A stretch of 63,277 nucleotides of DNA, counting the filler, from Stramenopiles sp. TOSAG23-2 (lineage: Eukaryota): NCBI GenBank assembly GCA_900128395.1. It is 42 parts of 42 records of this genome, joined end to end, with 100 filler letters (N's around TTAATTAATTAA, not from the genome) between each part and the next. Parts side by side here need not be neighbours in the genome. Positions count along the whole stretch, not along the records: positions 1,521 to 2,940 come from LT652945.1; 41 more parts are not named here. One strand, given 5' to 3'. The notes beneath the pieces were generated by a model. It ran no database searches, was not told where the DNA came from, and was given only the letters and a program-made list of their open reading frames with translations. Shown piece by piece: positions 1,521 through 53,358 of the stretch; within the stretch, counting starts at the first letter, position 1; every line of letters begins with the position of its first letter. The translations under genes were made by a program, and so were the position numbers.

Positions 1521-2938
1521 TATGTTTTACCTGAACCAGCTGGACCGTAAATATGAATATTGTTAATTTTGTTGTTGTTATTATATTTCTTATAATATTC
1601 ATCTAGTTTTTTTTGCTGATCAGGTGTGAGAGTATCGTTTGCTAGTCTACCTTCTTCGCATATCATCCTTAACGTATTCAATAATTGTCTTCGTTCCGGT
1701 AGACAATTGATGTTGATATTTTTGCATCCTATCTTTGTAGCAATTTTTTGAACATCACCTATTTGCATCATACTAAACTTTTCTATCATATTATTAAGAT
1801 TTTCTGGATTCATCATGATATGTGTTTGAAATAAATTATAGAAAATTGCTCCGGTATGTTTTACTTCAGCATTACTAGCAGTATTATTATTATTATTATT
1901 ATTTTGTGGTTTTGCGCGTAATATTTCTTCTTTTTGTTTTTTTGGTACCAACGCTGCATTGTTTTTTATATTTGTTTGTAAAAGTGGGTTTATTCGTGTT
2001 GCAACAACACTGCCATCTTTCTGCAGTATCTTCGGTTTTGCGTTATAAATATTTTGAATGCTGGTTGCCCAAAAACCTACATCTCCCCTAAACACTGGCA
2101 TCATATTTATTTTTCCAATACCTTTTAAATATTCTTTGTTCGGAGGGCATTTATCAAGCATTTCACCTATTTTCTTTTTATGTTCGATATCATGTACCAC
2201 TACTAATGGCTTTCCATATTCGACTGCCCATTCTAATTCTTTCACGCAAAATGATCGGGTGAAATATAATGGTGACATTATTACAAGTACCAGATCAGAA
2301 CACATAATGCCTTCTTTCATCGCATCTTCATCCTGTTCGTGCATCCTTACATCTAACCAACATGTTTTTTCATACTGATCTCGCATCGAGTAAAACACAT
2401 CAAGTGCAATATCTTTCGAATCTGATTGCACATGCGATATAAAATAATCCCAATGTCCAGGATCATTCAAAATTGTAGTACTTGTTGTTGATGATCTATA
2501 TAAATCCATTTTTCCAACTTGTTTTTCAACATTATTATCGTCTTTTTTAACATGCGCTAAAATTTTATCGTTTTGTTTTTGAAGCTTAATATCTACATCC
2601 TTTGTCAAAGTTTTGTTCATATCTTGTTTTAAATTGTTACTATTGTTGTTGCTGTTATTATTGTTATTGTTATTACGATCGAAGCTTTGTTGCCTTGCAA
2701 GCAATACTTTTTCTGGGTCACCTGAATATGTAGTCTTCGATTTCCCCGCTATCTCTCTTATTATTGTTAAATCAGATCCCTTCTTCTGTTGATTTTGTTG
2801 TTGTTGCTCTAGTTCATCAACTCGACCATCAATCTTTACAACATCTCTTTCCAAGGCAATAATATTTTCCTCTAACTTGACATACTTTTCATAAATATCA
2901 TAATAAAATATTTTTAATCCTTCCAAATGTTCATTCAT
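1521..2938 (-). CDS. Coiled-coil + TIR (TIR_2-like) + small helical domain + start of P-loop NTPase (SF1-helicase-like), 3'-truncated
   Basis: WDYFISHVQSDS..CWLD..SDLVLVIMSPLYFTRSFCVKELEWAVEYGKPLVVV (TIR, ~2040-2451); LTPDQQ then IHIYGPAGSGKT Walker A at the contig end. Confidence 0.85.
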
Positions 2939-25655: not shown

Positions 25656-26316
25656 NNNNNNNNNNNNNNNNNNNNNNNNNNNNNNNNNNNNNNNNNNNNT
25701 TAATTAATTAANNNNNNNNNNNNNNNNNNNNNNNNNNNNNNNNNNNNNNNNNNNNATAGTTTATTTTAGTCATTTCTGTAAATTAATAATTTATTTAAGT
25801 ACAAATTTTAATGTATAAATTTGATGCCAGAAATTCTGCTATCCCTAATTTCTGAAAACAAGAAATGTCAAAATTATTTTGCCAATTGATAGGAAAAATA
25901 GTATACTAGTGGAGCCTAAGTTTAAAAAGCTATTTTCAATGTTTTTCCTTTGTTTTCATGTAATGAAATGAAAAATCCAACATCACAACAAGGAAATAGA
26001 AGAATTTAGGTTGAAAATGTTAGTTTTAATGAAATTTGATGAAAAATATGCGCGATGTAATGGTATGTACTGTTAAACAGCCAGAACCAACACTAATTAT
26101 AGATTTTTATAGAAAATGAATATGTACATATATATCAATAGTAGTATCCAAGATAATACATATAATGTTGCAAATACACATGCAAATGTGTTGGGATATA
26201 TATAAATACGAAATACAATTTATATATATTTACGTAAATAAATTGAAATAGAAATAATTACTCTTAATATCGTTGTAATATCGATATTATTACAACCTTT
26301 TTTTTTTTCTTCAACC

Positions 26317-26784
26317 ATGTCAAGATTATTATTAGAAGAAAATGTAGAAGAAAATAAAAAATGGGAAATTGATACTAGTGCAATTGAAATTCTTGGATAT
26401 ATCGGACGAGGTGCTTTTGCAGATGTACATAAAGGTACTTTATATGGAATGGATGTTGCAATTAAAAAACTTCATGCTCATACGAACGAAAAAGAGCGTG
26501 AACAAGCAAAATCATTATTACAGAATGAATTCAAAACGTTAAGTTTATGTCGACATCAAAATGTTGTACAAATATTAAATATTTGTTTCGAGCCACCTAT
26601 GCTTATATTGGCATTTGCAGAAAAAGGAAATTTAAGAAACCTACTCGAACACGAACCAAACATGTCCAAAGAAAAACGCTTTCAACTCGCATGTGGCATA
26701 TGTAATGGAATGGCAATGCTGCATAGTCGTAACATATTACATTTAGATCTAAAACCTGAAAATATTTTAATTAGGGAAAGATAA
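26317..26784 (+). pseudogene. Tyrosine-kinase-like protein kinase truncated after the catalytic loop (no DFG/APE)
   Basis: WEID, IGRGAFADV, VAIKK, HLDLKPENILI then a stop; breakpoint ~26770. Confidence 0.75.
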
Positions 26785-26827
26785 AAAAGAAGACGGACTT
26801 CTACAGGTTGAACGTGATCATAATGAA

Positions 26828-27165
26828 ATGGAAAACAAGCTTATGGGAGATATGCAACATGTGAAAAATGGAGCAGAGAAAAAGAAAAGTGCTGTATATA
26901 TTAAATGGGAAAAAGAATTTGATGGGAAGACGGGAGTGCATTTGGGTGGAAAGAACCTCACGGATGAGGATGCATTAGCTATTGGTGAATTGTTAAAAAC
27001 AAACAATACATTAACGTCATTGGACCTACATAGTAATAATATTACTGATGTACAAAGTATTGGTGAAGGATTAAAAATAAACAATACATTAAAGGAATTG
27101 ACCCTAGGTGGTAATAATATTACTGATGTACAAAGTATTGGTGAAGGATTAAAAACAAACAATAC
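26828..27165 (+). CDS. RNI-like 26-aa LRR protein (78-bp repeats), fragment
   Basis: LKTNNTLxxLxLxxNNITDVQSIGEG units start at 26993, 27071 and 27149. Confidence 0.9.
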
Positions 27166-53118: not shown

Positions 53119-53358
53119 TTATGATGTCTTTATCCTCATCAGTTCCACTTGTTGATACCCGTTTGATCCATCTCTTTTATATTGTTGTATAGCATTTAAT
53201 TGTGATATCATATTAGAACTAAGTTGATTATTACTTAGGAACAAGTATCTTAATGTATTGTTTGTTTTTAATCCATCAATAATACTTTGTATTCCACTAT
53301 CATCAGTAATATTATTATTATATAGGAGCAATGACGTTAATGTCTTGTTTGTTTTTAA
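53119..53358 (-). pseudogene. 5'-truncated LRR cassette or terminal exon (2 LRR units + C-cap), same family as 26828-27165
   Basis: LKTNKTLTSLLLYNNNITD..LKTNNTLRYLFLSNN..AIQQYKRDGSNGYQQVELMRIKTS*; homology begins abruptly at 53358. Confidence 0.75.

Follow-up and report, generated by a model that had tools for sequence, protein, structure and literature searches.

TIR effectors are controlled by STAND ATPases in plant TNLs and bacterial Avs-like proteins, by SAM and ARM domains in SARM1, by STING, and by partner proteins in Thoeris. SARM1 and the bacterial TIR NADases are activated by oligomerization, and TIR NADases need a head-to-tail assembly of their TIR domains. Many eukaryotic TIR domains work as scaffolds. 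Among microbial eukaryotes, Dictyostelium discoideum likewise has TIR proteins, TirA to TirE. Published accounts link TirA to antibacterial defence (PMC13142454, PMC5758549, PMC4773522), and PMC13142454 describes TirB, TirC and TirD as small and lacking any further recognizable domain, TirE as carrying RCC1 repeats, and TirC as a potent NADase. Since TirC and the cADPR-producing TIR proteins of four unicellular eukaryotes, as reported in a preprint (bioRxiv 10.64898/2026.04.20.719644), provide precedents, protist TIR domains can be NADases.

Here we describe part of a gene from Stramenopiles sp. TOSAG23-2. As judged from its relatives, the gene has a TIR-helicase-LRR order that is unusual among innate-immune-like receptors. 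As in plant TNLs (RPP1, ROQ1) and other NLRs, a TIR domain, a central P-loop NTPase and a C-terminal LRR follow in the same order; the TIR fold lies near those of RUN1 and RPP1, the LRR of the relatives resembles the RNI-like repeats of NOD2 and NLRP proteins, and the proposed logic, in which a sensor and a switch govern TIR assembly, is alike. However, the NTPase of TNLs and NLRs is of the STAND class, whereas a two-lobe SF1 helicase-type ATPase is predicted here, with a coiled coil and (in the relatives) a Peptidase_S74 module N-terminal of the TIR. Outside the TIR and LRR, these proteins have no sequence relation to the family. SARM1 and the bacterial TIR NADases (AbTir, TcpB/BtpA, TIR-STING and Thoeris ThsB) have the TIR fold and the glutamate position in common with the family, but they are regulated through other domains: SARM1 uses ARM-SAM and TIR-STING uses STING, compared with a coiled coil, helicase and LRR here.

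The nearest solved folds of the relatives' helicase are those of the group III Schlafens (human SLFN11, SLFN14 and SLFN5; PF09848, formerly DUF2075), in which a helicase is part of an antiviral-type effector-plus-helicase protein, as proposed here. The effector in this family is instead a TIR domain, no Schlafen nuclease domain is recognized by Pfam, and the sequence similarity to SLFN11 is marginal. We know of no Schlafen with an LRR or an S74 module. RIG-I-like receptors and ZNFX1 also join a helicase ATPase to a signalling or effector module, with nucleic acid as a possible trigger, and ZNFX1 and MDA5 gave the best, though weak, sequence-profile matches of the helicase. In contrast to the SF1-like helicase, TIR effector and LRR tail of this family, RIG-I-like receptors belong to SF2, signal through CARD adaptors and end in an RNA-binding domain. 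The relatives share a Peptidase_S74 match followed by a coiled coil with MYRF and the phage endosialidase intramolecular chaperone, but the module is joined there to a transcription factor or, in phage, to a tail spike, and in the relatives its cargo is TIR-helicase-LRR. A literature search found no description of a TIR-SF1 helicase-LRR or S74-TIR protein within its scope; the supplements of PMC13142454 and 10.64898/2026.04.20.719644 fell outside that scope and may list such proteins. No D. discoideum protein was among the matches of two protein searches that depended on shared words.

The window, the whole stretch of 63,277 nucleotides that was analysed, is made up of 42 small contigs, with an N44-TTAATTAATTAA-N44 linker between each and the next. 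Because it is a chain of unrelated contigs, adjoining sequence provides no genomic context. One whole small contig (1521-2940) carries a single frame on its minus strand, cut at both ends, with the order coiled coil, linker 1, TIR, linker 2, helical region, LTPDQQ and Walker A (Table 1). A stop-free run of this length would be expected by chance with a probability of about 2e-19 at the base composition of the contig. The sequence is AT-rich, with poly-Asn. The initial annotation was right to read 1521-2938 as a coding frame; in addition to the truncation that it described, the 5' end is cut as well: the first Met of the frame aligns to residue 348 of the relative P0002, and the contig extends only 2 bases upstream. 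Two full-length relatives, P0002 (1460 aa, locus L001) and P0160 (1511 aa, locus L002), are single intronless ORFs, and P0002 is identical to the window frame at 301 of 348 residues. Judged from these relatives, the full gene would have about 1450-1500 codons, of which the window frame is the middle part.

Table 1. Features of the truncated frame, in window positions and residues of P0001.
Feature	Position	Strand	Residues	Remarks
ORF P0001	1523-2938	-		472 stop-free codons (translation); truncated by both contig ends
Coiled coil	2771-2935	-	2-56	single long helix; pLDDT 85-91
Linker 1, low-complexity, Asn-rich	2474-2770	-	57-155	pLDDT mostly <60; L002/P0160 type
TIR domain	1994-2473	-	156-315	L001/P0002 type; Pfam, model, Foldseek
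FISH	2432-2443	-	166-169	
CVKEL	2234-2248	-	231-235	
Glu234, putative catalytic glutamate	2237-2239	-	234	TTC on +, GAA on -; within FCVKELEW
Linker 2 with poly-Asn run	1859-1993	-	316-360	pLDDT 35-52
Helical pre-helicase region	1631-1858	-	361-436	conserved in P0157, P0009 and P0002
Q-motif-like LTPDQQ	1613-1630	-	437-442	L, T and Q invariant in 7-sequence family alignment
Walker A / helicase motif I, GPAGSGKT	1523-1546	-	465-472	A, G, G, K and T invariant in family

The TIR domain was recognized above cutoff by the Pfam TIR_2 model (PF13676, clan STIR) at residues 166-247 (32.5 bits versus a cutoff of 28, E = 1.3e-7), as it was in P0002 (29.7 bits) and P0160 (50.9 bits). AlphaFold2 modelled residues ~160-310 as a flavodoxin-like alpha/beta TIR fold with a pLDDT of 97-98. 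When this model was searched against the PDB with Foldseek, the best match was SARM1 (9mw1_B; E = 1.8e-5, target TM 0.75, rmsd 3.0 over 145 columns), followed by the TIR domains of RUN1 and RPP1; MyD88 TIR filaments were also among the matches (8w8m, E = 3.1e-4). The initial annotation had read FISH, CVKEL and an intact glutamate in this domain, and its position for the glutamate was exact. Alignments and conservation place Glu234 at the glutamate position of NADase TIR domains, where the alpha-C helix begins. The residue is conserved in at least 90% of a 51-sequence alignment, and the aromatic residue four positions N-terminal of it, Phe230, is kept. In phmmer alignments with solved bacterial TIR domains (E values from 5.5e-4 to 0.2), Glu234 pairs with the glutamate of a W...EL stretch (W..YEL or W.ARELD) in 7uxr, 4lzp and 4c7m, which we take to be the catalytic residue in those proteins.

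In other protists, the same TIR type is joined to kinases, Tudor repeats, Roc-COR, a kinesin and an ion channel, a distribution that fits a general interaction module. Together with the scaffold role common among eukaryotic TIR domains and the MyD88 filaments among the structural matches, this would be consistent with a TIR that is not an enzyme but an adaptor of the kind seen in animal TLR/MyD88 signalling, in a scaffold protein that recruits others without NAD+ cleavage. We consider an adaptor unlikely, as Glu234 and Phe230 are retained, the best structural matches are the NADase TIR domains of SARM1, RUN1 and RPP1, and protist TIR domains tested in PMC13142454 and 10.64898/2026.04.20.719644 were active as NADases.

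The coiled coil proposed ahead of the TIR was modelled as one helix. Three copies of residues 1-320, a number chosen by the analyst and modelled without use of the alignment, gave a self-association score of 0.65 compared with 0.00 for the best of 3 controls, to be read against a mark calibrated on two copies. Of 30 proteins whose solved structure is a pair of one chain, 21 attained this mark, compared with 0 of 23 whose structure is a single chain (in eukaryotes, 17 of 29 and 0 of 30, respectively). Contact agreement across the three-copy runs was at least 28% and partner pLDDT at least 69, and the coiled-coil interface comprised residues 1-51 with 3-4 (heptad) spacing. The model supports self-association of the coiled coil-TIR part. 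C-terminal of the TIR, linker 2 is identical to P0002 at 42 of 45 residues and to P0160 at 41 of 45. The short helical domain that had been proposed after the TIR corresponds to modelled helices between residues 362 and 452, those of the pre-helicase region being 362-373, 378-389, 393-402 and 416-434, though with a model pLDDT of just 40-74.

As the initial annotation had observed, the contig stops at Walker A, GPAGSGKT being the final 8 residues of the frame, and LTPDQQ lies ahead of Walker A; IHIY starts 18 residues past LTPDQQ. The contig ends 2 bases beyond Walker A, where the relatives go on with YLALDF... and the remaining helicase. Over the last 112 window residues, identity ranged from 73 to 95% (P0157, 106/112; P0009, 88/97; P0002, 100/111; P0160, 82/112), and all four relatives continue from these residues into one common helicase with motifs I-VI. 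The motifs include DEAHH, SDPSQ, VVRST, QDGLEYD and YRAMTRAK, and LT..Q, GxGKT, DEAHH and D..Q are invariant in the family alignment.

The helicase of the relatives was modelled as two alpha/beta RecA-like lobes with a core pLDDT of 70-87. In the PDB, the first Foldseek match of this model was SLFN11 (7zel, E = 1.5e-11) and the next SLFN14 (9uie, E = 4.5e-9), with Dda, RecD, nsp13 and Upf1 below them and SF2 remodellers interleaved; TM-scores of the two-lobe model were low (0.3-0.4). In BFVD, SF1 helicases made up most of the best matches (UvrD-like, Dda and nidovirus helicases), and 10 of the 10 matches listed from the Atlas were UvrD_C, Viral_helicase1 or SLFN-g3 clusters at 0.97. Sequence matches to solved helicases were weak (ZNFX1, E = 0.011; MDA5, 0.016; Dda, 0.026; SLFN5, 0.053; SLFN11, 0.095). 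The strongest Pfam match was ResIII, nominally an SF2 family (P0002, 48.8 bits; P0160, 48.6 bits; cutoff 22.5), and Viral_helicase1 also exceeded its cutoff of 21 (P0002, 24.4; P0160, 24.8; P0157, 27.7 bits). SLFN-g3_helicase was at or just above its cutoff of 24 in two of the seven relatives with the family listed (P0009, 24.0; P0152, 24.6 bits) and below it in P0156 (22.6), P0157 (22.1) and P0155 (21.4). UvrD_C_2 scored 13.2-18 bits versus 27.4, and AAA_19 15-17.4 versus 25.1, except in P0155 (26.8).

The STAND models all scored below cutoff: NACHT (13.1 versus 26.7), NB-ARC (22.0 and 17.8 versus 23.5), nSTAND3 (17.5 versus 27.2) and NPHP3_N (16.9-18 versus 24.8), with matches confined to the P-loop region. 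Among the 47-48 Foldseek matches listed per library for PDB and BFVD (ranks to 50), there were no STAND ATPases; helicases were returned. The HMM scan that had been suggested for the C-terminus, carried out on the relatives, gave ResIII and Viral_helicase1 above cutoff, a mixed outcome for the other SF1 families, and NACHT/NB-ARC below cutoff. Motifs I-VI, the SLFN/SF1 folds and the low STAND scores support the earlier prediction of an SF1-helicase-like NTPase. Read from near-identical relatives, the missing C-terminus is supported as a two-lobe SF1-type helicase ATPase rather than a STAND ATPase. Insertion domains of UvrD, Upf1 or RecD were not recognizable by Pfam in the helicase of P0002 and P0160. 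A Schlafen N-terminal (AlbA_2-type) nuclease core gave no Pfam match in P0001 and P0002 (E<=1), P0152-P0157 (E<=0.01) or P0160 (E<=0.001).

Both P0002 and P0160 have the order N-terminal domain, Peptidase_S74, coiled coil, TIR, helical linker, helicase and RNI-type LRR, so that the TIR and helicase order of the window recurs at two other loci. The match to Peptidase_S74, a family of self-processing and trimerizing modules, exceeded its cutoff of 22 in P0002 (24.8 bits), P0160 (23.9), P0003 (24.4) and P0155 (40.8), and 30 of 30 look-alikes of this region in the Atlas were S74 clusters. The S74 modules of the relatives contain an S-D-x-x-x-K stretch (SDSELK, SDPNFK, SDERLK), presumably the position of the Ser-Lys dyad. 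The window lacks the module, as its frame begins downstream of it; P0003 matches the first 155 window residues at 44 of 53 and 78 of 98 positions. Pfam LRR matches to the C-terminal region of the relatives were below cutoff, while PDB searches with this region matched RNI-like and NOD2/NLRP LRR chains (E = 4.6e-15 to 1.6e-8). From these relatives we infer the helicase, LRR and S74 parts of the window's own allele. Given the LRR and S74 module of the relatives, the LRR may be the sensor and the helicase the switch, and the first suggestion, of a nucleic-acid-sensing helicase in a candidate antiviral cell-death module, is incomplete.

All the relatives keep the helicase-LRR part, but the domain joined to it varies. 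Besides the second TIR type, there is a weak CHAT-like segment at the position of the TIR in P0152, and a protein kinase ahead of the LRR in P0155 and P0154. Relatives of the helicase part numbered 5 among 8000 scored candidates, and thus the family picture stands on few sequences.

Compared with the two loci, the window gene is a natural mosaic of two paralog types, with a P0160-type 5' part and a P0002-type TIR. Linker 1 is identical to P0160 at 81 of 96 residues and to P0002 at 24 of 80, whereas the TIR is identical to P0002 at 149 of 160 residues and to P0160 at 77 of 149. At the nucleotide level, 2491-2850 follow L002 (e.g., 90/90 bases at 2491-2580) and 1951-2490 follow L001 (e.g., 90/90 bases at 2041-2130); the switch point is the conserved GHWDYFISH stretch. 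The crossover is bridged by a 297-base contig from an RNA library of another study (X15 record 1), which covers 2305-2604 with 5 differences and one 3-base gap. Between P0002 and P0160 themselves, identity was 93% in S74, 88% in the helicase and 52% in the TIR, and codons differed at 33 of 80 identical residues in the TIR versus 27 of 373 in the helicase. These comparisons show that effector exchange on the conserved helicase-LRR frame is modular. A variable effector position combined with paralog recombination is the pattern of conflict genes and not of core metabolism.

This pattern bears on whether the protein is a housekeeping or regulatory RNA or DNA helicase, with the TIR and LRR as accessory regulators and no role in defence. 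The SF1 ATPase motifs are all intact, and Upf1, RecD and Dda are among the closest folds, as such a helicase would have them. Nevertheless, the family is small and patchy, the effector varies while the frame is conserved, the paralogs recombine, and the insertion domains of the familiar helicases are not recognizable, and we judge a housekeeping role slightly less likely than an adaptor.

The mosaic, in an assembly made of very short contigs, could also mean that the fragment stems from no working gene, being either a dead copy or two paralogs fused in assembly. This appears improbable: the frame is intact across all its codons, the TIR is nearly identical to that of P0002, and the independent RNA-library contig crosses the switch. 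A chimeric junction between TIR and NTPase, which had been named as a way in which the first reading could fail, is argued against by the same junction in L001 and L002. That the protein is a classical TIR-NBS-LRR protein with an ordinary STAND (NACHT/NB-ARC) NTPase, as the TNL-like domain order and weak P-loop-only matches to NB-ARC (22.0 bits), AAA_16 and NPHP3_N might suggest, is extremely improbable in view of the sub-threshold STAND models, the second RecA-like lobe with helicase motifs IV-VI in the relatives and the helicases returned by Foldseek.

Four sequencing runs yielded short contigs alone, none covering the whole stretch, and near-identical pieces were present in contigs assembled from seawater and marine metagenomes (X2, X15, X16). 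A dictyostelid source, which the AT-rich, poly-Asn sequence had first suggested, was set aside on account of these marine pieces. Evidence for transcription was weak, consisting of short contigs in RNA libraries that may contain DNA. The read depth at 2625-2720 is a pile-up on an Asn-codon repeat and is meaningless, and uncovered parts of the stretch are uninformative. Within the window, the only matches of tblastn with P0002, P0160, P0152, P0153, P0154 and P0155 were this fragment and two pieces of LRR, which lie on other contigs. A viral origin was considered and rejected, as 31 pattern matches in viral contigs included 0 relatives. A prokaryotic origin of the helicase was also set aside, though on weak negative evidence: at least 599 pattern matches in genome contigs included 1 weak relative (22% identity, E = 6e-7), an Upf1-like AAA_11/AAA_12 helicase with an RNase_H_2 domain and not a specific relative. 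Scanned with PADLOC and NCBIfam models, P0002, P0152 and P0156 gave marginal matches only (mad8, 16.9 bits; AbiO, 25.8 bits over 50 residues around the P-loop; ThcB4, 18.5 versus 220; ZapE and IstB, far under cutoff).

We propose that the gene encodes an NLR-like receptor built on a helicase ATPase, with the TIR as an NADase effector. Taken whole, from architecture to immune role, this statement is in our estimation probably correct; of the S74-coiled coil-TIR-helicase-LRR architecture by itself we are highly confident. In the proposed receptor, the helicase-type ATPase would replace the STAND ATPase of an NLR-like intracellular receptor, and the coiled coil, with the S74 module upstream, would keep the chains together. 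The helicase and LRR would sense a ligand, a candidate being nucleic acid or a pathogen protein, and would provide the ATP-driven switch. Upon activation, the TIR domains would form a head-to-tail assembly in which Glu234 would cleave NAD+, and the resulting NAD+ depletion or ADPR-type signal would cause the infected cell to arrest or die.

More tentatively, the family may represent an undescribed class of eukaryotic receptor, in which an SF1 Schlafen/UvrD-like ATPase and an RNI-type LRR form a sensor frame with swappable effectors and a trimerizing S74 module, an NLR analogue built independently. The effectors (two old TIR lineages, a CHAT-type protease and a protein kinase) would have been plugged in by paralog recombination. 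The upstream Peptidase_S74 would trimerize the receptor and might cut off the N-terminal domain upon activation, by predicted self-cleavage.

Even if the immune reading is wrong, the locus is a clean example of a 1.4-kb contig completed from metagenomic relatives. The family also offers a natural experiment in effector swapping, in which a single frame is combined with TIR type A, TIR type B, a CHAT-like segment or a kinase, and a testable hypothesis, that of an ATP- and ligand-gated NADase activity dependent on Glu234. To our knowledge, almost nothing is known about antiviral defence in this marine protist lineage. If the proposal is true, control of a TIR by an SF1 helicase and an LRR would add one more independent answer to the problem of TIR control, and it would tie a Schlafen-type helicase fold to NAD+-based immunity in that lineage.

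The finding at 1521-2940 coincided exactly with one contig of the 63,277-base window, in which 42 contigs of ~1.4 kb each are arranged longest first with N44-TTAATTAATTAA-N44 spacers, which are six-frame stop linkers, between them. Because the window joins separate contigs, adjacent genes are not genomic neighbours and do not form a context for 1521-2940. A single open frame of 472 codons (P0001) spans the contig on its minus strand (2938-1523); at the expected stop spacing of 11-12 codons for the contig's base composition, such a stop-free run would arise by chance with a probability of ~2e-19. Every motif named in the initial annotation was present where it had been placed (table). The first Met of the frame paired with residue 348 of P0002, a 1460-aa relative encoded in a metagenome locus, and the frame began just after the position of the S74 module, at the coiled coil. 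Thus, the frame is truncated at its 5' end as well, which corrects the initial annotation.

Positions of motifs in the window protein P0001 and of the genes for its full-length relatives
Feature	Position	Description	Source
FISH	residues 166-169		translated frame P0001
CVKEL	residues 231-235, Glu234 at 2237-2239		translated frame P0001
LTPDQQ	residues 437-442		translated frame P0001
GPAGSGKT (Walker A)	residues 465-472, 2 bases from contig end		translated frame P0001
P0002	L001 6960-11342	single intronless ORF	metagenome scan
P0160 (1511 aa paralog)	L002 5726-10261	single intronless ORF	metagenome scan

A word-index search for longer proteins returned P0002 as the single match among 5904 candidates, with 301 of 348 residues identical to P0001 from the TIR through Walker A. 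An exhaustive HMMER search yielded 803 proteins at E <=1e-3, mostly with TIR-only likeness, together with fragments overlapping the ends of P0001 on the N-terminal (P0003) and C-terminal (P0009) sides; the 611-aa protein P0157 belongs to the cluster of P0009. The metagenome scan yielded two loci, L001 and L002. Over the last 112 residues of P0001, identity was 106/112 for P0157, 88/97 for P0009, 100/111 for P0002 and 82/112 for P0160, and past GSGKT all four ran on into one same domain. Of 8000 scored candidates, which ranged from 803 to 2555 aa, only five were relatives of the helicase part. The C-terminal leucine-rich repeat (LRR) of the full-length relatives was of the ribonuclease-inhibitor type, its top PDB sequence matches being RNI-like proteins and the LRRs of NOD2 and NLRP proteins (E 4.6e-15 to 1.6e-8).

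The class of the NTPase was read from these relatives, because the window ends at motif I. Invariant in the family alignment were L-T-x-x-Q, A-G-x-G-K-T, D-E-A-H-H and D-x-x-Q; farther downstream the alignment had L-x-D-V-V-R-S-T, D-T-I-S-N-Q-D-G-L-E-Y-D and Y-R-A-M-T-R-A-K, which we take to be the SF1 (UvrD/Rep-like) motifs IV, V and VI. In P0002, ResIII (48.8 versus 22.5 bits) and Viral_helicase1 (24.4 versus 21) exceeded their Pfam cutoffs, while DEAD (25.7 versus 26) and UvrD_C_2 (13.2 versus 27.4) fell under theirs. SLFN-g3_helicase (cutoff 24) matched P0009 at 24.0 and P0152 at 24.6 bits, with three other relatives below. The P0157 model had a helicase core of pLDDT 70-87; disordered termini brought its mean down to 56. 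For this model, Foldseek ranked the helicase domains of human SLFN11 and SLFN14 nearest among solved structures (E 1.5e-11 for SLFN11), ahead of Dda, RecD, SARS-CoV-2 nsp13 and Upf1, with SF2 remodellers interspersed; giant-virus UvrD-like helicases, Dda and nidovirus helicases were the top matches in a viral structure library. In a language-model atlas, 10 of the 10 matches listed were SF1 clusters (UvrD_C, Viral_helicase1, SLFN-g3; score 0.97). By sequence alone, likeness to solved helicases was distant (best ZNFX1, E 0.011). No STAND Pfam model exceeded its cutoff in the relatives (NACHT 13.1 versus 26.7, NB-ARC 22.0 versus 23.5), the likeness being confined to the P-loop. The evidence from the relatives agrees with the earlier proposal of an SF1-helicase-like NTPase rather than NACHT/NB-ARC, and we conclude that the NTPase is an SF1-type, Schlafen/UvrD-like helicase ATPase.

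The TIR domain proposed earlier was likewise recovered. Pfam TIR_2 matched P0001 at 32.5 bits (curated cutoff 28), and in an AlphaFold2 model built with 51 aligned relatives, residues ~160-310 had a pLDDT of 97-98. By Foldseek, the nearest folds of the modelled domain were NADase TIRs: NAD+-cleaving SARM1 (E 1.8e-5, target TM 0.75), RUN1 and RPP1. Of the 51 aligned sequences, at least 90% kept Glu234, the putative catalytic residue. By phmmer, Glu234 paired with the Glu of the W...EL stretch in the bacterial TIRs 7uxr, 4lzp and 4c7m, presumably the catalytic Glu of those enzymes, and Phe230 fell on the Trp. The window's TIR subtype also occurred, at 30-49% identity over residues ~150-310, in six eukaryote-like proteins with very different TIR partners (P0010, P0014, P0081, P0087, P0112 and P0136: Tudor repeats, SPRY and kinase, ankyrin-Roc-COR, Macro and FYVE, an ion-transport domain and a kinesin motor).

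Residues 2-56 of P0001 were modelled by AlphaFold2 as one long helix (pLDDT 85-91), in keeping with the coiled coil of the initial annotation. A three-copy model of residues 1-320, for which the copy number was chosen by the analyst and the family alignment left out, scored 0.65 versus 0.00 for the best of 3 controls, above the tool's mark; in calibration, done on two copies, 21 of 30 proteins with a solved same-chain pair passed this mark, as did 0 of 23 solved as single chains (eukaryotes: 17/29 pairs, 0/30 single chains). At least 28% of contacts agreed between runs, partner pLDDT was at least 69, and the interface comprised residues 1-51 with the 3-4 spacing of a parallel coiled coil. This prediction supports self-association of P0001 and favours no particular stoichiometry. 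The full-length relatives begin with an N-terminal domain of ~215 residues, followed by Peptidase_S74, an intramolecular chaperone (24.8 bits in P0002, 23.9 in P0160, 24.4 in P0003 and 40.8 in P0155; Pfam cutoff 22). All 30 of 30 look-alikes of this region in the language-model atlas were S74 clusters.

Parts of this frame were exchanged among relatives. The paralog-like P0152 (1411 aa) had the family's N-terminus, an S74-like stretch, the coiled coil, the helicase and the LRR, and at the TIR position (residues ~470-550) a segment that scored weakly for CHAT (18.2 bits, under its cutoff of 24) with H-F-I-G-H-G and S-A-C-E-T stretches, which we take to be caspase-like His and Cys positions. This suggests a putative protease effector on the helicase-LRR frame. 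The C-terminus of P0155 and the N-terminus of P0154 had the same 21 residues (MRIILSDPSQDPSCDTVINSK), and the two look like halves of one gene; joined, they contain S74, coiled coil, a middle part, helicase, protein kinase and LRR. P0156 had a helicase and a weak N-terminal TIR (22.3 bits) without an LRR, and the EukProt entry P0153 had helicase and LRR after 1100 unassigned residues.

Between P0002 and P0160, identity was 93% in S74, 92% in linker 2 (after the TIR) and 88% in the helicase, but fell to 52% for the TIR and 53% for the N-terminal domain; codons differed at 33 of 80 identical residues in the TIR and at 27 of 373 in the helicase. This contrast argues that the two TIRs are old lineages within a young or homogenised frame. 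The window gene was a third combination, with the coiled coil and linker 1 (before the TIR) of L002 type (e.g. 90/90 bases at 2491-2580) and the TIR of L001 type (e.g. 90/90 at 2041-2130), the switch lying at the conserved GHWDYFISH stretch. This assembly did not create the mosaic artefactually, since an RNA library from a separate study yielded a 297-base contig (run X15, record 1) that bridges the switch, covering 2305-2604 with 5 differences and one 3-base gap.

Upstream of the TIR-helicase-LRR genes, large ORFs lay on the opposite strand (L001 2-5080 and L002 457-3831, both minus), with three ubiquitin domains in L001 (177.7 bits), one in L002 (62.9 bits) and a weak, under-cutoff C2H2 zinc-finger match in L001. 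With ubiquitin ORFs upstream in both, the loci look like a duplicated segment. Two other contigs of the window held LRRs of this family. At 26242-27165 (+), a protein kinase domain was followed by a frame break, possibly an intron, and an LRR that starts YIKWEKEFDGK...NLTDEDALAIGELLKTNNTL, matches the beginning of the LRR in P0002, P0160 and P0152 at 75-81% identity, and continues past the contig end; the gene may encode a kinase-LRR, or a helicase-kinase-LRR akin to P0155/P0154. At 53125-53358 (-), a C-terminal LRR tail, terminated by a stop codon, was 78% identical to the final 78 residues of P0160 and could be the 3' end of the gene for P0001 or of a paralog. The frame was closed upstream of this tail, which may reflect an intron or a remnant.

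The contig or parts of it occurred in 20 of the 24 runs listed, from 13 studies, and the run with the best share (0.72) is possibly the source. Among four runs compared, X2 (labelled seawater metagenome) matched with 0-1 differences in records 20, 22 and 23, and X16 (oligo-dT RNA library, labelled marine metagenome) gave, at 2485-2771, two contigs of 151 bases, one with 0 differences and one with 1. The RNA-library contigs are only a hint that the gene is transcribed, because such libraries can hold DNA. Across the AAT/GTT-rich Asn-codon repeat in linker 1 (2625-2720), depth ran from hundreds to 14,000 with many loose ends in 4 of 4 runs; this is a low-complexity magnet and no signal about the gene. 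A pattern scan of viral contigs gave no relative, and one of prokaryotic contigs gave a single weak, non-specific relative among the matches listed. These outcomes, the low GC (32%), the poly-Asn tracts, the EukProt relative and the ubiquitin/C2H2 ORFs fit a microbial eukaryote.

Collectively, an architecture of S74, coiled coil, TIR, helicase and LRR is very probable. NLRs have the same order of effector, NTPase and LRR; here, in contrast, a helicase-type ATPase takes the NTPase position. TIR NADases such as SARM1, plant TNLs, TIR-STING and AbTir are active only once brought together, and we therefore propose a mechanism of pre-assembly and release. The coiled coil and upstream S74 module would pre-assemble receptor chains, with helicase and LRR keeping the TIRs apart at rest. 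Ligand, with ATP binding or hydrolysis, would alter the arrangement of chains, and the TIRs would cleave NAD+ via Glu234, with NAD+ depletion or an ADPR-type signal as the outcome. The helicase might read nucleic acid, a possible parallel to RIG-I, ZNFX1 and Schlafens, or the LRR might read protein with the helicase as a mere switch. Conflict genes show effector exchange on one frame and recombination between paralogs. The swapping of TIR, CHAT-like and kinase modules seen here, together with the paralog recombination, therefore argues for an immune role, indirectly, and is the chief argument of this kind. We rate the immune NADase mechanism at slightly better than even. Nucleic-acid sensing coupled to antiviral cell death, as first proposed, is a plausible reading and an incomplete one, the LRR and S74 modules being missing from it.

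Protist TIRs are an active research topic. In a 2026 preprint, eukaryotic TIRs are mapped to 13 clades and Dictyostelium TirC is shown to be a potent NADase (PMC13142454), and a second preprint describes cADPR-producing TIRs from four unicellular eukaryotes (10.64898/2026.04.20.719644). No description of TIR with SF1 helicase and LRR, or of TIR with S74, was found by full-text literature searches or in the text consulted from these two preprints, whose supplements may list such proteins. We regard the finding as a TIR receptor of immune type in which the central ATPase and the N-terminal module are unusual.
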